The notes: a model not told the origin generated them from the letters alone. Numbered from the stretch's first letter, positions 2,185 to 11,100 are shown. The stretch: 12,957 nt of DNA from Candidatus Pacearchaeota archaeon (GCA_018304175.1 JAGVWT010000009.1:1-12957); one strand, 5' to 3'. Numbers and translations are program-made.

Positions 2185-2257
2185 CGCCCCGACCGGGATT
2201 CGAACCCGGGTCGCCGCCGTGAAAGGGCAGTATTCTTGGCCTCTGAACTATCGGGGC
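2185..2257 (-). tRNA. tRNA-Glu (UUC), no intron, CCA not encoded
   Basis: Acceptor GCCCCGA/TCGGGGC plus G73, D-arm GTTC/GAAT, anticodon arm CTGCC-CT-TTC-AC-GGCGG, T-arm CCGGG-TTCGAAT-CCCGG. Confidence 0.95.
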
Positions 2258-2369
2258 ATTGCTCCAAAAGTTCTCCGCGATTTCGTCGGAGGCAATTTGA
2301 AATCGCCGTTCCGCGTTTCGAGGAAGTTGAAAAGAAACCATCGGGTTTCTTTTGCTGAACTATCGGGGC
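2243..2369 (-). repeat. 15 bp exact direct repeat of tRNA-Glu nt 1-15 (2243-2257 and 2355-2369) enclosing a 97 bp structured spacer
   Basis: CTGAACTATCGGGGC occurs at both positions on the + strand. The spacer has the perfect IR AAAAGAAACC-CGAT-GGTTTCTTTT and the pair GCGATTTC/GAAATCGC. Confidence 0.9.
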
Positions 2370-2392
2370 TTTTTTATACTGGGGGATTTTAA

Positions 2393-2400
2393 TTTTTAAA
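2393..2400 (-). promoter_or_regulatory. Putative TATA box for the tRNA-Glu locus
   Basis: TTTAAAAA with purine-rich upstream sequence lies 24 nt before the upstream 5'-end copy (2369). There is no TATA-like sequence at the matching distance from the intact tRNA (2257). Confidence 0.5.
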
Positions 2401-2419
2401 GATTGTCTTTATTGTACCT

Positions 2420-2434
2420 GCTCGCTTTGCTCGC
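2420..2434 (-). repeat. REP-like mini-hairpin GCGAGC-AAA-GCGAGC with tandem G.A pairs
   Basis: The + strand GCTCGCTTTGCTCGC is a GC-rich island in an AT-rich intergenic region. Confidence 0.4.
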
Positions 2435-2641
2435 TTAATTCACTCACTATGTTTGATATTTTACATAGCTATTAATTAAAAGACTATAAATTTATACATT
2501 AACTAAAAAATCAATATCTGAACGACTTCGGAGTGAAGCAATTTTTTATCTTTAAAGTCAAACAAAATAATCGCTTTCTAAACAAAGCCACTTCCTACGG
2601 CAAAGTTTTAAATATGAAAAATTGATGTTTTTAATATTGAT

Positions 2642-2763
2642 GAGCCTGTAGCTCAGCCTGGTTAGAGCACTGCTCTTATACGATTGCAATTCAATGGGAT
2701 TGTAATTCTCTAGGATTCGTCTAAGAGAGGCAGGGGTCCGAGGTTCAAATCCTCGCAGGCTCA
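2642..2763 (+). tRNA. tRNA-Ile (UAU) with a 47 nt canonical 37/38 intron (2681-2727)
   Basis: Acceptor GAGCCTG/CAGGCTC plus A73, D-arm GCTC/GAGC, anticodon arm CTGCT-CT-TAT-A^A-GGCAG, T-arm CGAGG-TTCAAAT-CCTCG. A clean bulge-helix-bulge is formed by the helix CTTA(2675-2678)/TAAG(2722-2725) with 3 nt bulges TA^C and AG^A. TATA box TTTAAATA at 2607-2614. Confidence 0.92.
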
Positions 2764-2769
2764 TTAGAA

Positions 2770-3183
2770 TCATTTAATCCTCAATTCTTTTCCAAAATAA
2801 TCCTTCACAATTTTCTGCAACTCAATTAATCGCCTTTTGTTTCTTCCAATTAAAATCGCTTTATTCTGACTTCCAGCAATTAAAATTATCTCGTTGCCTT
2901 TTATCTCCAATTCCCTAAATGTTGCAGGATTTACAATCGCCTCAATAAATTTTCTGAGATTAATTATTCCTTCAGGATTAGGAATTATCTTTACTCTTTT
3001 TCCTATCATATAACTTACCTGCTTCACATTCTTCCCGTTTTCCCCAATAGCTCTTGAAATCATGTTTTTAGGAACGCAAAAAATCACAAAATTATTGTAG
3101 GTAAAACAGTGGCTTGTCTTGACATTTGTTATTTTTACGAAAAGATTCAGATATCTTATTTGCTGCATGTCAATTGTTTTCAT
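2770..3183 (-). CDS. nusA: Archaeal NusA (KH-domain transcription factor)
   Basis: 137 aa with two KH-type motifs (RAIGENGKNVK and LIGRNKRRL), in the usual position after rpoA''. Confidence 0.88.
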   Translation of the reverse strand: MKTIDMQQIRYLNLFVKITNVKTSHCFTYNNFVIFCVPKNMISRAIGENGKNVKQVSYMIGKRVKIIPNPEGIINLRKFIEAIVNPATFRELEIKGNEIILIAGSQNKAILIGRNKRRLIELQKIVKDYFGKELRIK

Positions 3184-3185
3184 TG

Positions 3186-6100
3186 TTAAGAATTCTTTGC
3201 TTTTACCTCAATAACCTTCTTTTCTTTTTCACTTTTCACTAATCTTCCAGTAACTTCAACAAATAAACCAGGCAATCCTGTTCCTACGGGAACTGGCTGA
3301 TTCAATATAATATTTTCTATAACACTTGTTAAGTCATCTTTGCTTCCTTTTATCGTCGCATTCACGAACTGGTTTATTGGGGTCTCAAAAGTTGCTCTTG
3401 CAAGTATTGAAGATTTCTGCGCGATTATTCCCATTCTGGTAATTCCCTTTATAATCCCTATAACTGTCATAGCGTCCGCAACCAACTCTAAATGTCTCCT
3501 GTTAATGTCAAGTCCCTGCGTATTCAAAACGCCTTGAATTTCATTGATTATTAACTGCCTCGCGGCTTCTATACCAAGAACACTAGCAACTTCATACAAA
3601 TCATTTGAAAGAGTTTTATCAGCGTCGACTTCTTTCATTTCAAATATTTTTTCCATGTTTGTTCCAAGAGTTATAACAACATAATTGCTTCCCTCTTTCA
3701 CAACCATAACTTGCTTTATTCCCTTAACTCCTGAAATTAATGAGGCTTTGATTTTTTCCTTCAGCTTGTATATCTCCTTGAATGAATATTCTCCCGCATT
3801 CACAATTATAGAATTGTCCTTTTCTCTTGCCTTGTAACCCAAATCCTTCAATCTATCAACAATTGTTTTAACAGAAGAGTGCGTCTGCTTCAATCCTTCC
3901 TTATCAATTTTTATTTCAATGCTTTTATCGGTAAAGCTGATGATTATCTCATCAGCGATTTCTTCAACAGTGATTTCTTTTATTTTCTCTGCAAACATTT
4001 TAGCATTTTTTTCATTGTTGTAATCTTTTGAAAGGTGGATTTCCATTTTCGGAGAAGAAGGTTTTTTTCTTGCGTCAAAAATTTCAATTAATTTAGGCAG
4101 TCCTGTTGTAATCTGCATTTCCTGAACTCCTGCGAAGTGGAATACATTCAATGCCATTTGTGTTGATGGCTCACCAAATGATTGTGCAGTTATGATTCCT
4201 ATTGCCTCGCCAGGATCCATTTTTCCGCCGGTGTGAAGTTTTGATATATCCACATCATCATAACCATATTTGAATTGTATTATATTATTATTACTATCTC
4301 TTATAGTACTGTCATATTCTTTTCTCAAATCCTGAATTGCATTTGCAAGTCTTCTATACAAATAACCTGACTTTGGAGTTCTCAATGCAGTATCCATCAA
4401 AGAATCACGTCCTGTTACAGCTCCGAAGAAAAATTCATCAGGCCTTAACCCTTTCATGAAAGAACTCTTGATAAATCCGCGAGATTCAGGAGAAAGTTCA
4501 TTCCTCTTAAAGAAAGGAAGTGTTCTTTTATTGTATCCAATATCAATTCTTCTCCCTAAAAGTGCCTGCTGTCCGACGCTGCACGCTATCTGTGTAATAT
4601 TCAAGATATTTCCCCCTCCTCCAGAAACAATCATGTGATTAACTGGATTATTTGCAGGAAATTCTTTTTTCGCAATTTCTCCGATTTTTGTTCTTACCTC
4701 GTTCAAAACCTGAAGAATTTTTATCTCCCTCGTATCTTCTTTTGATTTCCCGGGAATTGTTTCAAGCCTTCCTTCTTCGTAATCTTTAATTAATTCTTCT
4801 GTCTTTTTCTCTGCCTTTTTTATAACTTCATCACTTTCATTTATCGCTTTCTCATTCAAATTCAAATCTTCAATTGAAATAGTGATTCCATTATTGCTCA
4901 AATATTTCACACCGAGATTGAATGAGTTTTTTATCATGTTAAATGCTTCATCTCTTCCATGTTCTTTGTCAACTTCCATGATTAACTCTCCGTCTTCCTC
5001 TCCAAAAAGGGTTTTGTCTATCTTACCATTTAAGATTTTTCCATCTTTGATTTTCACAGAAGAGTTTGTAAAATCCACTTTTGGAATTATTTCTGAAATT
5101 AATTCTATTCCTGTAATATTTTTCTTTTTTATTTCCTTGTTGATTCCTGACATAAAAAGAAGCTGGTTTGCCTCATCAGCAGATAACTCTGCCTTTCCAA
5201 GGAGGTAATTTCCTGTCAAAGCATCTTCATCAAGTCCAAAAAGGTTAGAATTATTTTTTGGAGAAATTAAATTATTTTTTACATTGAGAATTGTTCTTGC
5301 CTCTGAACGTGCTTCCTCTGTTTGTGGCGAGTGAATATTCATTTCGTCTCCGTCAAAGTCTGCATTGTAAGGGAAAGTCACCGCTGGGTGAACTCTAAAT
5401 GTTTTTCCAGGCAAAACCCTGACAAAATGCGCCATCAAACTTCCTTTGTGTAGTGAAGGATGACGATTGAACAAAACAACATCCCCGTCGACAAGATGCC
5501 TCTCAACTTTATAACCCGGAATAAGTTCATTCATTATTTCTTCTTTTAATTCAGGAGTAATCTTCTTTCTTTTACCATCAGGCCTTATGACATAATTTGC
5601 TCCAGGATATTCCTCACCACATTCAATAAGTTTCTTCATACTATCTAAATTCATGTCGTTAACTGTCTCAGCGACGGTGATTATTCGCGCGATTTCGTAA
5701 GGAACACCAACTTCATTAAGTTCTATAGAAGGGTCAGGAGAAACAACAGTTCTTGCAGAGTAGTTTACTCTTTTTCCCGCTAAGTTTTTACGGATTCTTC
5801 CCTCTTTTCCTTTTATTCTTTCTGTGATTGTTTTCAACGGTTGTCCACTTCTATGGCGTGCAGGAGGTATTCTTGTAACGCTGTTATCGAAAAAAGTTGT
5901 TATGTGATATTGCAATAAATCCCACAAATCTATAATAATAACTTCTGCTGCTCCGGCATTCAAATTTTCCCAAAGTCTTTGATTTGCCCTGATTATATCT
6001 GAAAGTTTATGTGTTAAATCGTCTTCGCTTCTTTCTCCTGTTTCAAGAATAATACTCGGTCTTACTGTTACAGGAGGAACCAAAAGCGAAGTGAGAACTC

Positions 6101-6665
6101 CCCATTCAGGTCTTGAAGTATGTGGATTCACCCCTACTTTAGCCAATTCTTCATCAGGAATTTTAACAAGTATCTCTCTTATTTCAATCGGAAAAATTCT
6201 TTTCTTTCCGATGTAAAAATTAGTTGGCTTGTCTAACTTAACTTTTTCATTCGCTGTTACGCAATGAGGACATTTTTTTGCATCTTTCGCTTTTTTCGCT
6301 CTTTGACTCGGAGCATATTTTTTCAAATCGTTTTCAGAAACCATTAACTTTCCACATTCTTTGCAAAAACATCTCAAACCCATCTCAACTAATGGAATAT
6401 ATTTCAAATGCATAACAGGTCTTGCAAGGTCAATTCTTCCAGAATGTCCTAAGCATTCTTTCAATCGTCCTCCACATGTTCTGCATCTTACTCCAGGATC
6501 AATTGCACCAAGTCTCAAGTCCATCAAACCACCATCGACAGGATAACCATCAATATCATAAAGTTCAGGTGTGACTATTTTCGCGACGGAAAGTTTTTTG
6601 ATTTGCTCTGGGCTAAACAACGCGAATCCAATTTCAGAGATTTTTTTTCTTATTATTTTTTGCAT
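3186..6665 (-). CDS. rpoA: DNA-directed RNA polymerase subunit Rpo1, A' and A'' fused in one ORF
   Basis: Zn motifs CRTC...CLGH and CKEC...CPHC, catalytic NADFDGD (5346-5366), bridge helix DTALRTPKSGYLYRRL, and A''-type PGEAIGIITAQSFGEPSTQM and PVPVGTG, all in one 1159 aa frame. Confidence 0.97.
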   Translation of the reverse strand: MQKIIRKKISEIGFALFSPEQIKKLSVAKIVTPELYDIDGYPVDGGLMDLRLGAIDPGVRCRTCGGRLKECLGHSGRIDLARPVMHLKYIPLVEMGLRCFCKECGKLMVSENDLKKYAPSQRAKKAKDAKKCPHCVTANEKVKLDKPTNFYIGKKRIFPIEIREILVKIPDEELAKVGVNPHTSRPEWGVLTSLLVPPVTVRPSIILETGERSEDDLTHKLSDIIRANQRLWENLNAGAAEVIIIDLWDLLQYHITTFFDNSVTRIPPARHRSGQPLKTITERIKGKEGRIRKNLAGKRVNYSARTVVSPDPSIELNEVGVPYEIARIITVAETVNDMNLDSMKKLIECGEEYPGANYVIRPDGKRKKITPELKEEIMNELIPGYKVERHLVDGDVVLFNRHPSLHKGSLMAHFVRVLPGKTFRVHPAVTFPYNADFDGDEMNIHSPQTEEARSEARTILNVKNNLISPKNNSNLFGLDEDALTGNYLLGKAELSADEANQLLFMSGINKEIKKKNITGIELISEIIPKVDFTNSSVKIKDGKILNGKIDKTLFGEEDGELIMEVDKEHGRDEAFNMIKNSFNLGVKYLSNNGITISIEDLNLNEKAINESDEVIKKAEKKTEELIKDYEEGRLETIPGKSKEDTREIKILQVLNEVRTKIGEIAKKEFPANNPVNHMIVSGGGGNILNITQIACSVGQQALLGRRIDIGYNKRTLPFFKRNELSPESRGFIKSSFMKGLRPDEFFFGAVTGRDSLMDTALRTPKSGYLYRRLANAIQDLRKEYDSTIRDSNNNIIQFKYGYDDVDISKLHTGGKMDPGEAIGIITAQSFGEPSTQMALNVFHFAGVQEMQITTGLPKLIEIFDARKKPSSPKMEIHLSKDYNNEKNAKMFAEKIKEITVEEIADEIIISFTDKSIEIKIDKEGLKQTHSSVKTIVDRLKDLGYKAREKDNSIIVNAGEYSFKEIYKLKEKIKASLISGVKGIKQVMVVKEGSNYVVITLGTNMEKIFEMKEVDADKTLSNDLYEVASVLGIEAARQLIINEIQGVLNTQGLDINRRHLELVADAMTVIGIIKGITRMGIIAQKSSILARATFETPINQFVNATIKGSKDDLTSVIENIILNQPVPVGTGLPGLFVEVTGRLVKSEKEKKVIEVKAKNS

Positions 6666-6666
6666 T

Positions 6667-7071
6667 TTATCTTGATTGATACAACAACCTCCCTTCTTTC
6701 ATATCTTTCCCAAAATCTCCTCTCCCATAAGGATTATTACCTAAACAAAGTTTAACATCATCTTCAGTTAATACAAAAAAACTGAATCTATCAGAAAACT
6801 TTCCATTTATTAACCTTCTAATTTCCATAGTTATTTTTCGTGCCCGTTTATCTTGTACAATACAATCAGGGGTGTCTCTCTGATACTCTAAAGAGAGTAC
6901 AGAATATCCACTAACTCCTACTTCTAACAAAACATCAATATCTGATTTTTCAGGATCCCAATTTTTATTATTATAACTTCCAAAAACTCTTATCTCTGAT
7001 AATATAGGAACTTCTGTTTTGGCAATTTCAACCAGTTTCTCAAGTTCTTGCTCAACAATTTGTCTTTCCAT
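6667..7071 (-). CDS. Pol-beta superfamily minimal nucleotidyltransferase (MNT-like), orphan
   Basis: 134 aa with VFGSY...SDIDVLL (the GS plus DxD signature) and a C-terminal EGRLLY typical of MNT domains. It has 1 nt gaps to rpoB and rpoA. Confidence 0.8.
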   Translation of the reverse strand: MERQIVEQELEKLVEIAKTEVPILSEIRVFGSYNNKNWDPEKSDIDVLLEVGVSGYSVLSLEYQRDTPDCIVQDKRARKITMEIRRLINGKFSDRFSFFVLTEDDVKLCLGNNPYGRGDFGKDMKEGRLLYQSR

Positions 7072-7072
7072 T

Positions 7073-10000
7073 TTACTCGTATTTGTTTTTTAATTTCATT
7101 TTTGTGTGAATGTGCAATCCTTGTAATTCTTCCAAAAGAAGTTTGAACACATATGAAATCTCAACTGGCTCTGTGTCTTCGCTGCTACAAATTGGACAAT
7201 AAATTTTGTTTCTTATATTGTCTTCAACTGCGATGCTTCCACAATGCGTGCAAATGTAAAGAACAACTTTGTCTGAATCATAACGTTCTTTCAAAAGCAA
7301 TGAAGCTCCGTGAGCAACCAACGCTTGCTGTTCCATTTCTCCTAATCTTAAAGCTCCACCTCTCGACCTTCCTTCAATCGGCTGTCTTGTAAGCAAAGCA
7401 ATTTTTCCAGAAGCTCTTGCATGAATTTTATTTGCAACCATATATTTCAATTTCAAGTAATAAAGATTTCCAATAAAAATTTTTGTAGCCATTCTCTTAC
7501 CAGTTATAGGATTGTACATTGTTTCTTTTCCGTCGTAACTGAACCCAAGATTTTCCAGGCTTTCCTCAAGGGAGTTTTTTTCCTCTCCTGAAAATGGAGT
7601 TCCGTCAATTACTTCTCCTCTCAAACATCCAACTTTTCCTGCGAGCATTTCAAGCAAGTATCCCATAGTCATTCTGCTCGGCAAACCATGAGGATTAAAA
7701 ATCACATCTGGCTTAATTCCCTTTGAAGTGAATGGAACATCTTCTTCATTTATTATCGCTCCGATAACTCCCTTTTGTCCATGAGATGTCGCAAATTTGT
7801 CGCCGACTTCAGGAATTCTTATGTCTCTCGTTCTTACCTGAACAATTTTGTTTCCTTCAGAATCCCTTGTAATGAAAACAGCGTCGACAGTTCCTTTTTC
7901 TTCCTGTCGCATCGTGATGCTCGATTCTTTTTGTGTCTTAACTGAAATCTCCCTCGCTTCTGACAGGAATTTTGGTGGAGATATCTTCCCAATTAAAACT
8001 TCCCCTTCATTGACTTCTGCTTCTGGATAAATAATTCCATCATCTTCTAAAAATTTATAACTTGCCTCAGTTCTGTATCCAGAAGTTCCCTTCTCAGGCA
8101 CAATTATTTCATCTCTCAGTCCTCCTGCATAATTTATTTCTACAGCACTATAAGGTCTAAAGTAAAAACTTCTTCCAACTCCTCTATCAAAACTTCCTTT
8201 GTTGAAAACCAAAGCGTCTTTCATGTTGTAACCTTCATAAGTCATGACTGCAACAACCATATTTTGTCCTGCAGGATACATGTTTAAAGTATCATAAACA
8301 AAACTTCTGACTATTGGTTTTTGAGGATATGCTAAAACACTGACATCAGTATCCAATCTGCAGAGATAATTCGCAGAATATAAACCTAATGCCTGTTTTT
8401 GAGTTTTACTACCACGATTCAATCTCGAGCTCTGGTCATGGTTTCCATAAGGAACTAATGAAGTAACAACTCCTAACAAATCCATTGTATCAATTTCAAG
8501 ATGTGTATGTTCGGGAGTGAGTTCGTTTTCATACAAAGCGACAAAAGAATTTTCTTCTTCAGAAGTATCTAAATATTCTATGACTTTTTCCTTTATCAAA
8601 TCCTCCCACTTTATTTCGTTCTGCCTGAGTTTCATTAAATGTTCTTGAGTTAATCTTGGAACCCCATTATCAACTATAACCAAAGGCCTCAATGCCCTTC
8701 CGGACTCTGTTGAGATAATAACATTTCCAAAATCAAAATTGTTTCTTATATTAACCTCTCCTGGAATTTCCTGTTTTCTTCTCCTTTCTCTTATCTTTCC
8801 TACAAAATCTTTTGGAGATTGAACAATTCCTATAAATTTCCCGTCGAGAAAAACATCTGTTCCTGTTGCATCTTCCTGGCTTAAACCTTCTTGCACAAGA
8901 TCTTTGATGAATTTTTGCACGTCAAAGTTTATTCTCGTTGATACTCTACATAAAATTGAAAGGTTTTTTCTCAAACCGATTTCTGTTCCTTCAGGGGTTT
9001 CTATAGGACAGAGTTTTCCGTAGTGAGTTGGATGCAACGTACGCGCCATGAAATTTTCCTGCTCACTTGGAAGCATTGAAGAAACACGTTGCAACTGTGA
9101 AATCGTGGCCAGATAATTTGTCTTGTCCATATTCTGCGTAACCCCGCTCCTGTCGCCAGTCCAACTTCCTGTTGCAATCGCAGATTCAACTCTGTGTGAA
9201 AACAAAGTAGATTTCGCAATTGTCTTTATTGAAAAAAGTCTTTTCCTCTTCACCGATTTCTGCAAAGAGTATTGTATGTCTCTGATAAGAATTCCTAAAT
9301 TTGCCCTGAAAAGATTTGCCATCAAATCTCCGGAAAGCCTGATTCTTTTGTTTGAATAATGGTCTTTATCAGTTTTCAAATCAGGATTTTCTTTAGCGAT
9401 TAAAAATTGTTTTATCATCTTGCACAAAGTTATGGCTTTTTTCATTCTTTCTTCTTTCGTTTGTCCAATGTTTGGGAGAAGATAAGAATCAATTCTTTGC
9501 TTTACTCTGTCAAGAATTTCTTTTTTTGTTCCCTGTAATGCAGAATCTTCTGCAATTTTCAGCATCGCTTCTTCAGGAGTAGACAAATTCACAAACTCGT
9601 ACAAGTTCACAATCAAACTGTCTGTTTCTTTCCCGACGTATTTTGCAATGTCAGATTCTCTTGTCATTCCCAAAACCTTTAAAATTATAACTGCGGGAAT
9701 ATTTCTGAATCTGCTGAATGAAACTTCAAAAATTCCTTCTTTATTCTCAGAAATGACGACTGGAATCCTATAAGTCCCGCGCGAAGAAAACATTCTTAGT
9801 ATTAGATTTTTTTTGCTGTCTTTTTCAATGAAAGGCTGATTTTCAGCCAAGTCTTCAGACATTATCATAACTCTCTCATTTCCGTTGATCATAAAATAGC
9901 CACCTGTGTCTAATGGGTCGTTGTAATTTTTTATCAAGTCTTCTTTTGATAGTCCATAAGTGTTACAAGCCTTGCTCTTTACCATGATTGGAATTCTTCC

Positions 10001-10333
10001 TATTTCAACATTTTCAGAATCAATTTGTCCTTCTTTTTTTATTGTTATTTCAAGGGTTATAGGGGAAGAATAAGTCAAATTCCTAAGGCGGGCTTCATAA
10101 GGCATGACTAATGAGCTACTTCCGTCAGATTCAATAATTTGAGGCTTTCCTACTTTTATTTTTCCAAGATTTATCTCAAAATCTTCTTTTGCAATGTTGT
10201 CATTAACTTCATTGACTATTTCCTGCATCCTGTGCTCAATAAAATCATTAAACGAAATTATGTTTGAACTAACAAGTGAATGGTCTTCCAGGTATTTCTT
10301 CACAACAATATGGTCATTTTTTTCTTTTTTCAT
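7073..10333 (-). CDS. rpoB: DNA-directed RNA polymerase subunit Rpo2 (unsplit B''+B')
   Basis: Motifs LCPIETPEGTEIGLRKNL, GYNMKDA, GDKFATSHGQKG, HARASG...TRQPIEGRSRGGALRLGEME and a C-terminal Zn ribbon. The start is placed at 10333 (MKKEK), preceded by GGAG, rather than at 10357. Confidence 0.97.
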   Translation of the reverse strand: MKKEKNDHIVVKKYLEDHSLVSSNIISFNDFIEHRMQEIVNEVNDNIAKEDFEINLGKIKVGKPQIIESDGSSSLVMPYEARLRNLTYSSPITLEITIKKEGQIDSENVEIGRIPIMVKSKACNTYGLSKEDLIKNYNDPLDTGGYFMINGNERVMIMSEDLAENQPFIEKDSKKNLILRMFSSRGTYRIPVVISENKEGIFEVSFSRFRNIPAVIILKVLGMTRESDIAKYVGKETDSLIVNLYEFVNLSTPEEAMLKIAEDSALQGTKKEILDRVKQRIDSYLLPNIGQTKEERMKKAITLCKMIKQFLIAKENPDLKTDKDHYSNKRIRLSGDLMANLFRANLGILIRDIQYSLQKSVKRKRLFSIKTIAKSTLFSHRVESAIATGSWTGDRSGVTQNMDKTNYLATISQLQRVSSMLPSEQENFMARTLHPTHYGKLCPIETPEGTEIGLRKNLSILCRVSTRINFDVQKFIKDLVQEGLSQEDATGTDVFLDGKFIGIVQSPKDFVGKIRERRRKQEIPGEVNIRNNFDFGNVIISTESGRALRPLVIVDNGVPRLTQEHLMKLRQNEIKWEDLIKEKVIEYLDTSEEENSFVALYENELTPEHTHLEIDTMDLLGVVTSLVPYGNHDQSSRLNRGSKTQKQALGLYSANYLCRLDTDVSVLAYPQKPIVRSFVYDTLNMYPAGQNMVVAVMTYEGYNMKDALVFNKGSFDRGVGRSFYFRPYSAVEINYAGGLRDEIIVPEKGTSGYRTEASYKFLEDDGIIYPEAEVNEGEVLIGKISPPKFLSEAREISVKTQKESSITMRQEEKGTVDAVFITRDSEGNKIVQVRTRDIRIPEVGDKFATSHGQKGVIGAIINEEDVPFTSKGIKPDVIFNPHGLPSRMTMGYLLEMLAGKVGCLRGEVIDGTPFSGEEKNSLEESLENLGFSYDGKETMYNPITGKRMATKIFIGNLYYLKLKYMVANKIHARASGKIALLTRQPIEGRSRGGALRLGEMEQQALVAHGASLLLKERYDSDKVVLYICTHCGSIAVEDNIRNKIYCPICSSEDTEPVEISYVFKLLLEELQGLHIHTKMKLKNKYE

Positions 10334-10411
10334 TTTGATTCTCCAAAATGGAAACATGAAAATCTTTGATTTTCTTTCTTCATTTCAAAATATATCCAAC
10401 AAATTTTTTAA

Positions 10412-10621
10412 TTATACTACAACTCTGTAATAAAAAGCTATTTTATCGTCGGAATTTTTGCGTTCAATCTTTATTACATCACCAACATTGCAATCTTTTG
10501 GCAGTGCATGGTCATTGATTAAAATTTTTGGTAATTGTGCCTTAGAAATATTCAAACTTGAGAGAAGTGCTTCAGTTTCTTTTTCGTTGAGTTTCAAGTG
10601 TTTTGGCTGGAGTATATGCAT
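10412..10621 (-). CDS. rpoH: RNA polymerase subunit Rpo5 (H)
   Basis: 69 aa, HILQPKH...QLPKIL.ND...GDVIKIER...YYRVVV, first gene of the canonical operon. Confidence 0.93.
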   Translation of the reverse strand: MHILQPKHLKLNEKETEALLSSLNISKAQLPKILINDHALPKDCNVGDVIKIERKNSDDKIAFYYRVVV

Positions 10622-10673
10622 GGTTTCAAATAAGAGGTTTAAAAATGGACTAATAAATGAAACAAAAAATTAA

Positions 10674-10688
10674 TTTATAAAGGTTTCG
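10674..10688 (-). promoter_or_regulatory. Putative BRE/TATA promoter of the rpo operon
   Basis: The minus strand reads CGAAACC-TTTATAAA, ending 53 nt before the rpoH ATG. Confidence 0.55.
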
Positions 10689-10719
10689 GAAAAAAGTTTT
10701 AGTTGGGATTCTTAAAAAA

Positions 10720-10729
10720 TGGCTCCGAT
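10720..10729 (-). repeat. Downstream near-copy of the tRNA-Lys 3' end (ATCGGAGCCA versus ATCGGGGCCA)
   Basis: 9/10 identity with 10853-10862, and both copies continue into TTT. This copy is followed by a T6 run (10714-10719). Confidence 0.5.
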
Positions 10730-10852
10730 TACTCGCGACCCCGCTCGGATTTTTTATTTTTCGTTTCACGATTAATTTTCGCGAAATCGCTCGGGATTTG
10801 ATACCGAGGTTCAAATCAACATTTGTAAATTCTGTTTAACAACAGCATGAAA

Positions 10853-10967
10853 TGGCCCCGATGGGATTTGAACCCACGACACCTGGATTGCTTTGCGAGT
10901 TCGCGAAGCACGCGAAACTTGTTTCAGCGTAAAAGTCCAGTGCTCTACCAGGCTGAGCTACGGAGCC
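10853..10967 (-). tRNA. tRNA-Lys (UUU) with a 41 nt canonical 37/38 intron (10889-10929)
   Basis: Acceptor GGCTCCG/CGGGGCC plus A73, D-arm GCTC/GAGC, anticodon arm CTGGA-CT-TTT-A^A-TCCAG, T-arm GTGGG-TTCAAAT-CCCAT. The BHB is the helix CTTT/AAAG with bulges TA^C and CA^A. Confidence 0.93.
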
Positions 10968-11056
10968 TTTTCTGTTTTTGGCGACGTAGCGGACCGAATC
11001 GGTTTTGACGATAGGGGTTATTGTAAGGGGATATGCCCCTCATGAGCTACGGAGCC
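10954..11056 (-). repeat. 14 bp exact direct repeat of tRNA-Lys nt 1-14 (10954-10967 and 11043-11056) enclosing a 75 bp structured spacer
   Basis: TGAGCTACGGAGCC occurs at both positions on the + strand. The spacer has the hairpins AGGGG-CATAT-CCCCT and ACCGA-T-TCGGT. Confidence 0.9.
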
Positions 11057-11079: not shown

Positions 11080-11100
11080 AGATAATTTTTAAACTTATCT
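11080..11100. promoter_or_regulatory. Putative bidirectional TATA element (tRNA-Lys / MFS) inside a 6 bp inverted repeat
   Basis: AGATAA-TTTTTAAAC-TTATCT. The TATA is about 30 nt from the upstream tRNA-Lys copy (11056) and about 22-27 nt from the MFS ATG (11115). Confidence 0.5.

Follow-up and report, generated by a model that had tools for sequence, protein, structure and literature searches.

Displaced tRNA ends and structured spacer modules beside intact tRNA genes of a Candidatus Pacearchaeota archaeon

The tRNA-Glu and tRNA-Lys loci

We analysed a stretch of 12,957 nt from Candidatus Pacearchaeota archaeon GCA_018304175.1 (JAGVWT010000009.1:1-12957; the whole stretch is called the window here), which is contig 1 of a 544-kb assembly that comprises 17 contigs and is 88% complete. 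Rfam identifies three tRNAs in the window, tRNA-Glu(UUC), tRNA-Ile(UAU) and tRNA-Lys(UUU), and no other Rfam family reaches the gathering score there. At the Glu and Lys genes, both on the minus strand, a copy of the tRNA's own 5' end stands beside the promoter and is parted from the intact gene by hairpin modules and by a segment complementary to that end. Such units are frequent in this genome and patchy in its relatives, and they probably reflect the insertion of mobile modules together with a duplicated tRNA end.

At the tRNA-Glu(UUC) locus (all coordinates on the minus strand), the TATA-like box CTTTAAAA (2394-2401) lies at about -32 to -25 of the outer copy, the spacing seen at tRNAs without units. 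The outer copy itself, displaced and promoter-proximal (2355-2369), is an exact 15-nt match to tRNA-Glu nt 1-15 that begins at nt 1. The spacer module that follows is predicted to fold into a first hairpin with a 10-bp stem and a 4-nt loop (2330-2353), also present at tRNA-Glu(CUC) and at non-tRNA sites, and a second, branched hairpin region (2274-2324) that partly recurs in the tRNA-Lys(CUU) leader. Next come an anti-5' arm (2261-2273), for which duplex energy and fold give 11 of 13 pairs with Glu nt 1-13, including one G-U, and a 3-nt linker in sequence and fold, AAU (2258-2260). The intact gene (2185-2257) scores 61.9 bits against RF00005 and is also called by ARAGORN, and the promoter scan found no TATA-like motif within 55 nt upstream of it.

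The tRNA-Lys(UUU) locus, likewise on the minus strand, follows the same plan. Sequence reading and the promoter scan place a TATA-like box, TTTAAAAA (11086-11093), at -37 to -30 of an outer copy that matches tRNA-Lys nt 1-14 exactly (11043-11056). Nt 14 of this copy overlaps the first A of a module recognised by core-pattern search, the type-I core ATGAGGGG-loop-CCCC-TTACAATAA-CCCC (11014-11043). The anti-5' arm GCTACGTCGCC (10980-10990) pairs with Lys nt 1-3 and 6-11, as judged by duplex energy, fold and covariation, and is followed by an A-rich 12-nt linker, AAAAACAGAAAA (10968-10979), that is the same at tRNA-Lys(CUU) and related at Ile(GAU). The intact gene (10853-10967; Rfam, 58.2 bits) contains a canonical intron of about 40 nt at about 10890-10929, its exon limits being set from sequence matches; ARAGORN calls it Glu, which is the wrong identity.

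This tRNA carries units at both its 5' and 3' ends. Sequence comparison and alignment with a relative (G001) delimit a 3' trailer unit (10730-10852), which includes a T-loop-complementary segment at 10809-10817, and an outer 3' copy, ATCGGAGCCA (10720-10729), that differs from the gene by one change and runs into a series of Ts. A preliminary description of the window, made by reading the sequence, had placed and described the upstream 5' copies of both genes correctly; the 3' unit of tRNA-Lys is an addition to it.

Frequency, promoters and orthologous sites

We counted as copies exact matches of at least 12 nt to tRNA nt 1-21 within 300 nt upstream, and searched downstream with the last 25 nt of each tRNA. 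An upstream copy of the 5' end accompanies 9 of the 37 tRNAs of this genome and a downstream copy of the 3' end another 9 of the 37, against means of 0.005 and 0, respectively, over 200 rounds of shuffled flanks. The copies thus exceed chance and recur at other tRNAs and in other genomes, where the preliminary description had proposed to look. Downstream copies of the 5' end were found at none of the 37. Units on one or both sides affect at least 14 different tRNAs, about one third of the tRNA genes, and those at 3' ends have mirror-image polarity, running from tRNA to arm to reverse-complemented module to orphan 3' end and terminator. Across units, the inserts measure 45-180 bp and are gene-free; repeat lengths span 10-39 nt, cluster at 13-19 and reach 24 and 39; and most duplications begin at tRNA +1 or -1.

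One tRNA-Thr(CGU) (contig 12, 15006-15272), which ARAGORN miscalls as Phe, carries two nested 5' units. Its outer unit consists of a decayed copy of nt 1-11 and a type-I module, and the other has a 20-nt copy with one mismatch, its own hairpin and an arm, TACCACT, directed against nt 14-20. For annotation in general, orphan copies and long flanks cause wrong tRNA boundaries.

A promoter motif, NTTTWAWW, starts 28-37 nt (mostly 30-33) before nt 1 at most tRNAs without units. It lies at the usual spacing upstream of most outer copies and is absent within 55 nt upstream of the intact gene in all eight unit-bearing tRNAs listed (8/8), so the claim that the sole good TATA box serves the upstream copy is borne out by a genome-wide scan. 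The TATA box of archaeal promoters is centred near -26. From this established geometry and the spacing observed here, we infer near-leaderless transcription that starts at the outer copy. The narrow band of TATA positions at tRNAs without units suggests that tRNA transcription may be near-leaderless throughout the genome, as in Nanoarchaeum, and yet RNase P RNA is retained: it is encoded on contig 17 (7350-7674; 78 bits, E 1e-22) and is found in 36 of the 41 genomes searched, this one included.

An assembly artefact is an unlikely source of the layout, because repeats of 14-15 nt fall below the usual k-mer size of assemblers and independent assemblies show the same layout. Among the listed contig pieces of four DNA runs, in which the tRNA bins were swamped by conserved tRNA sequence of other organisms, none bridges 1828-2736 or 10754-11021, and no joint skips exactly one unit; the comparison has no bearing on spanning reads or empty alleles. 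The Lys promoter together with its outer copy has no exact match in metagenome contigs.

Among the fetched loci of 60 related genomes, a 5' copy was found at 10 of 74 tRNAs and a 3' copy at 5 of 74, and orthologous sites are variously filled or empty. A tRNA-Glu 100% identical to the one in the window has a plain promoter and no unit in one relative (G025), and in a syntenic member of the same genus (G001) the Glu and Lys loci are both empty. The orthologous Glu site of G010 is filled by a related spacer with a different arm that is yet also complementary. In the window, the intron-containing tRNA-Ile(UAU) (2642-2763, plus strand) has no flanking copies according to Rfam, the copy search and the promoter scan. 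It had been regarded as an internal control, but its orthologues in four relatives (G010, G008, G004 and G172) carry 5' units.

The DNA that follows tRNA-Lys in G001 aligns with the DNA that follows the outer 3' copy in the window, from which we conclude that outer copies are the ancestral gene ends and that inner ones came with the insert. Substitutions are seen in some outer copies. We also compared 50 metagenomic contigs that cover the orthologous tRNA-Lys(UUU)/rpoH locus: 5' copies occur in 15 of them and 3' copies in 7, the spacers can be sorted by eye into at least eight families, and one case (L088) is a tandem array of units. The full type-I core, in contrast to its multiplication in the present genome, is limited to a single copy in each of 7 genomes among 300 others of the order. 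Six of these seven copies lie directly after nt 13 of a tRNA-start copy and precede the tRNA in question (Ile, Thr, Met, Ser-GGA, Ser-GCU and one unidentified tRNA), the seventh being in an unclear context. This distribution is that of a burst in one genome, with patchy, position-specific occurrence elsewhere.

Spacer modules, complementary arms and predicted folds

The spacers belong to multi-copy families. In this genome the full pattern of the Lys-type core, ATGAGGGG-loop-CCCC-TTAYAMTAA-CCCC, has nine copies. It lies in the leaders of tRNA-Lys(UUU), Ala, Ile(GAU) and Thr(CGU), occurs as its reverse complement in four trailers, those of Leu(UAA), Arg(CCU), Thr(GGU) and Arg(UCU), and is found inside the canonical intron of tRNA-Asp, which has a textbook hBHBh' (bulge-helix-bulge, BHB) motif. 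Core variants without the ATG start occur in the RNase P RNA gene and at two intergenic sites, and relatedness to introns extends to modules in a tRNA-Gly intron of this genome and a tRNA-Lys intron of G010. The Glu spacer is 95% identical to that of tRNA-Glu(CUC), the two tRNAs being less alike than that, and stretches of it are found again at tRNA-Lys(CUU), at three non-tRNA sites in the genome and in many copies in related genomes. The preliminary description was right that Glu and Lys share a layout while differing in repeats and spacers; the spacers are not unrelated singletons.

We found that the module end facing the orphan copy is always the same, sense upstream and reverse complement downstream. 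Because polarity relative to the gene is fixed in both transcript orientations, a DNA-level insertion process is favoured over one RNA function. Within a family the left end is constant (ATGAGGGG...) and a right-end motif, TTCGCTAC, recurs; the ends are not inverted and the length of the duplication varies.

Several copies stand apart from tRNA genes. Glu-type modules at non-tRNA sites lie on contig 14 (34046-34116 and 117923-117989) and contig 11 (1118-1240), and two of the three abut the start codon of a minus-strand gene, whose 5' untranslated leader they would form. The RNase P RNA gene carries a type-I core with an extra hairpin (contig 17, about 7370-7430; locus L001, about 1521-1580), apparently an insertion of about 50 nt beside the conserved GAGGAAGGUCC block. 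This insertion distorts the Rfam alignment of the RNA, which may explain a sub-cut-off score.

Type-I-like modules, such as those at 11014-11042 of the window and in the tRNA-Lys(CUU) leader, combine a purine stem, a loop, a pyrimidine stem, a spacer and a second pyrimidine run. In the Lys(CUU) leader (contig 14, about 81990-82015), the second run, TCCTTT, mirrors the stem strand TTTCCT instead of repeating it. Such a mirror would be as expected for an intrastrand triple helix, this being the one informative case, as the GGGG/CCCC version in the window cannot discriminate. On sequence reading, the type-I core and leaders are not a kink-turn or a box C/D or H/ACA guide RNA, as the key G-A and CUGA features are missing.

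The anti-5' segment had been proposed from the two loci in the window, where its excess over shuffles is marginal: 11 of 200 shuffles (Glu) and 3 of 200 (Lys) matched or beat the duplex energy of copy and spacer. Across units, this energy alone gives a weak signal at 5' units (mean z -1.4) and none at 3' units (mean z -0.4). The proposal stands on position and covariation. The best duplex lies 2-16 nt from the tRNA in all eight units of this genome (8/8), and tRNA nt 6-7 occur in the states CG, TG, TA, AG and CA, each met by a complementary arm. Additionally, arm and tRNA nt 1-7 covary: over 15 distinct combinations, none of 20000 permutations gave as many pairs as observed. Ten aligned type-I units have 70% of cells paired, compared with 61% when shuffled (0/500) and 19-38% when slid, and include five arm pairs changed on both sides. 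Thus duplex position, acceptor-strand covariation and pairing in the alignment together indicate that the arm is real. A young unit (L050) with a 39-nt repeat and one mismatch already carries its cognate arm, so the arm is present early.

The leader alone is predicted to fold as a closed stem-loop in which the copy is paired to the arm, at -41.6 kcal/mol (z -5.2) for Glu and -26.4 kcal/mol (z -4.2) for Lys. A single-stranded linker, AAU in Glu and 12 A-rich nt in Lys, would then lead into the tRNA. We considered whether the leader might be a degenerate duplicate of a whole tRNA and rejected this reading, as the arm pairs continuously with nt 1-11 and not with the acceptor strand alone.

Proposed insertion, processing and origin of the units

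The explanation we favour, and hold to be probable rather than secure, is that mobile, intron-related hairpin modules were inserted in the D- or T-loop region of tRNA genes together with a duplicated tRNA end, with transcription still starting at the old promoter, RNase P removing the long leader and the arm holding the orphan copy. The tRNA gene would thereby have been stretched from inside and still be intact, a block of 75-97 bp having entered just after position 13-15. This block would bring, in order, hairpin modules, an arm specific to the tRNA, a linker rich in A and a new copy of nt 1-14/15, leaving the original promoter and the first 14-15 nt upstream as the orphan copy, and a mirror-image event would displace 3' ends with their terminator. 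Of the three models in the preliminary description, insertion scars duplicating about 15 nt accord best with the evidence, that is, with the patchy and empty sites, the ancestral outer copies and the multi-copy families; a fixed length of 14-15 nt does not hold, and 3' ends are involved as well.

Transcription would begin at or very near the orphan copy, and the precursor, of 185 nt (Glu) or 204 nt (Lys) through the end of the gene, would have a leader of 112 nt (Glu) or 89 nt (Lys), self-closed by pairing of arm and orphan. An RNase P cut at the inner +1 would be the simplest route to a normal tRNA. A sequestering role of the arm is plausible on these models: it would hold an orphan 5' fragment that might otherwise be a rival of the real 5' strand in pairing with the 3' acceptor strand. 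As copy and arm are both transcribed before the tRNA, the capture could be co-transcriptional.

Several points weigh against this explanation. Duplications that start at +1 or -1 are not predicted by simple variable-length target duplication, and no transposase or integrase is assignable to the units. The precursor, its ends and its processing are predictions from sequence. Rpp29 and Pop5 have no Pfam match in the 88%-complete genome, which leaves some doubt. Non-Watson-Crick cells of the arm comprise 9 G-U and 12 A-C, and with no excess of G-U an RNA helix and a DNA hairpin are indistinguishable. Finally, the minimum-energy fold of the whole precursor, for both Glu and Lys, places the orphan copy in the acceptor stem and hairpins the arm with the inner copy, so sequestration would have to be kinetic. 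The two alternative folds use the same pairings and are of similar predicted stability.

These folds raise the question of whether the duplicated end is a working part of tRNA biogenesis, either as a fold-based maturation checkpoint or with the promoter-proximal copy as the real 5' end and the block removed without a BHB motif; to this general proposition we give little credence. As a maturation switch, a fold with the arm on the orphan and the tRNA free would alternate with one in which the arm holds the real 5' strand and the orphan occupies the acceptor stem, and the choice would control or check maturation. Both folds are predicted (the first for the leader alone, the second for the full Glu and Lys precursors), the arm is cognate to its own tRNA and the architecture is widespread in the order. 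We nevertheless judge the switch quite unlikely. Close relatives lack the unit, including the one with identical tRNA-Glu, at least eight unrelated spacer families occupy the orthologous tRNA-Lys gene, outer copies carry the substitutions mentioned above, and the same modules sit reverse-complemented at 3' ends and at non-tRNA sites. Additionally, tRNA alone reaches the gathering score in the window, and a comparison with cis-regulatory leaders of the riboswitch or T-box kind found no conserved sensing domain common to orthologues. The leader switch put forward in the preliminary description therefore keeps its two folds and its covarying arm, but is hard to reconcile with the patchy distribution and the varied spacers.

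The other form is an exon-duplicating intron, in which the outer copy would be the true 5' exon and the whole segment that begins with the spacer and ends with the inner nt 1-14/15 would be spliced from the D-loop. From the TATA spacing, transcription would start at about +1 of the outer copy, the minimum-energy fold gives the acceptor stem to that copy, the genome encodes the splicing endonuclease EndA (contig 14, 8308-8562) and the ligase RtcB, Rpp29 and Pop5 are undetected, and the modules are found in real BHB introns. However, with an intact gene downstream there is no need to splice, RNase P RNA is conserved throughout the order and the outer 3' copy of tRNA-Lys differs from the gene. 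When a splice leaves one repeat, identical sequence stands 5' of both cuts, which requires a self-complementary central helix of 4 bp; such a helix is possible at Glu (with G-U) and Lys, but the flanking helices have 0-1 bp at every splice point, compared with h=5 and h'=4 in the tRNA-Asp intron used as control. The mature tRNA is uninterrupted, full-length models matching contiguously (Glu) or with the canonical intron only (Lys). Neither in this genome nor among 80 rpoH loci did we find a tRNA whose D-loop has an intron while the inner copy is absent. We therefore regard such splicing as very improbable.

Only at tRNA-Ala(UGC), Thr(CGU) and Thr(GGU) (contigs 5, 12 and 13), which share a quasi-palindromic 5' sequence, is a BHB-type splice between copies geometrically possible. 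Their outer and inner copies could pair as a symmetric BHB-like duplex (k=11, h=3, h'=2-3) with the succession 3-bp helix, 3-nt bulge, 4-bp helix, 3-nt bulge and 3-bp helix and cuts after nt 11. This geometry counts in favour of exon-duplicating introns, and may be due to chance.

The remaining alternatives concern the agent of insertion. Directly 3' of tRNA-Glu, on the minus strand, lies a tyrosine recombinase gene (987-2124) with a frameshift near 1807-1826, its SAM-like N-domain being in one frame and its catalytic domain and C-terminal zinc ribbon in another; possibly it is part of a separate integrated element, one that extends past the start of the contig. Between the two minus-strand tRNAs is an RNA polymerase operon, which is separate from the tRNA feature and comprises rpoH, rpoB (7073-10357), a nucleotidyltransferase open reading frame (ORF), fused rpoA (3186-6665) and a KH-domain protein. 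The ORF (6667-7071, minus strand), between rpoB and fused rpoA, encodes 134 aa with a minimal nucleotidyltransferase domain (PF01909).

With a recombinase gene next to tRNA-Glu, the units might be remnants of site-specific integration, in which a tyrosine recombinase acting in trans would have moved miniature integrase-less elements with a tRNA end in the attachment site. Integration into tRNA genes classically leaves a partial copy next to the intact gene, direct repeats of one tRNA end do flank the block, and the duplication mostly ends at a functional tRNA boundary. Yet the elements are gene-free and measure 45-180 bp, and they would target at least 14 tRNAs in one 0.54-Mb genome, at both ends and with repeats of 10-39 nt. 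The genome has two tyrosine recombinase genes only, and the one adjacent to tRNA-Glu is frameshifted and on the wrong, 3' side. The blocks of 75-97 bp contain no ORFs and their ends are not inverted repeats. Empty sites and kilobase-long full elements had both been envisaged in the preliminary description; the former exist (G025 and G001), but no kilobase-scale element bounded by tRNA fragments was found: distant 13-mers occur only in coding sequence, as chance matches. We consider such remnants an improbable origin.

Casposons target tRNA genes, and integration by a Cas1 casposase with target duplications of 14-15 bp would suit the 14- and 15-nt repeats of the window. Against it, the genome (88% complete) has no match to Cas1 (PF01867), terminal inverted repeats are lacking and repeats vary from 10 to 39 nt across units, so a casposon origin is hardly credible. 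Searches for a Y1 transposase (TnpA) and for TnpB, the proteins of IS200/IS605-type hairpin elements, gave no match in the genome. Neither the casposase nor the integrase originally suggested as agent is upheld.

A repair or replication origin needs no dedicated enzyme, and none was found. In this view, which widens the hairpin-driven template switching of the preliminary description, template switching or microhomology-mediated break repair at fragile, highly transcribed tRNA genes would produce the duplication and draw its filler from abundant hairpin repeats, and units would then multiply in tandem. The variable repeat lengths (12-39 nt), the overlap of 1-2 nt where copy and module join, and the tandem multiplication of whole units (L088, and nested at tRNA-Thr(CGU)) are in keeping with this origin. 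On the other side, modules keep one polarity relative to the tRNA, those of type I are invariably found at position 13/14 in tRNAs of unrelated sequence, and the young unit L050 already has its cognate arm. On its own such an origin is unlikely. Within the insertion we favour, the data do not discriminate between an element bringing its own tRNA end and arm and an event of repair or template switching.

We did not find this arrangement described in the literature searched, in agreement with the preliminary view of an undescribed feature class; the nearest descriptions are mobile-element footprints at tRNA genes and mobile intron families. The tRNA intron families of Thermoproteales spread by 'intron transposition' (Fujishima et al. 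2010, as summarised in PMC4090602). In that account, as here, near-identical short structured modules occur in different tRNA genes and positions and are thought to move at the DNA level, and the Lys-type module here is also present in a canonical BHB intron (tRNA-Asp). Unlike those introns, the modules here lie outside an intact tRNA and beside a duplicated end, have no BHB motif for excision, and also occur reverse-complemented at 3' ends and at non-tRNA sites.

Integrative elements leave comparable tRNA copies. Kilobase-scale examples are given in bioRxiv 10.1101/2022.07.05.498093; the PYG1 island of Pyrococcus yayanosii has 44-bp repeats, and PMC3293823 describes heterogeneity at a Caldiarchaeum tRNA-Thr locus with a 5' fragment upstream of the intact tRNA. 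As in such cases, an intact gene is accompanied by a direct repeat of one end, the displaced fragment being the original end. In contrast to kilobase-scale, recombinase-bearing elements, the units here are 45-180 bp long and gene-free, affect a third of the tRNAs at both ends, and include a complementary arm.

Miniature inverted-repeat transposable elements (MITEs) and repeats like repetitive extragenic palindromes (REPs) and Rickettsia palindromic elements (RPEs) share with the units a multi-copy, hairpin-rich character, either orientation, presence or absence at orthologous sites, and expansion in one lineage (9 copies here versus 0-1 in 300 relatives). As to the ends the comparison is mixed, a constant left end and a recurring right-end motif within a family going with a lack of terminal inverted repeats and of a fixed target duplication. 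Unlike such elements, the units show a strict D- or T-loop position, a fixed polarity and a cognate arm. Split and permuted tRNAs (Nanoarchaeum, Thermofilum; PMC3218864 and PMC4090602) are likewise DPANN or archaeal, with pieces beside a complementary leader or trailer and near-leaderless promoters. The tRNA here, by contrast, is full and contiguous, shows no sign of assembly from pieces, and is accompanied by an extra piece that duplicates an end, supplies no missing half and has no BHB motif between the pieces.

The insertion of modules beside intact tRNAs predicts structured leaders of 90-110 nt where other tRNAs look leaderless, and would explain why RNase P RNA is retained. The cognate arm would be a case, open to test, of a competing decoy strand being neutralised in cis. 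If, instead, the block were removed from the D-loop, the loci would represent a new class of 'exon-duplicating' intron and a direct intermediate toward split tRNAs. How archaeal tRNAs gained introns and how split tRNAs arose are old open questions, and at these loci intron-related modules appear to have landed without breaking the gene. Given the high frequency of the units, and filled and empty orthologous sites in living lineages, the insertion process may be open to direct study.

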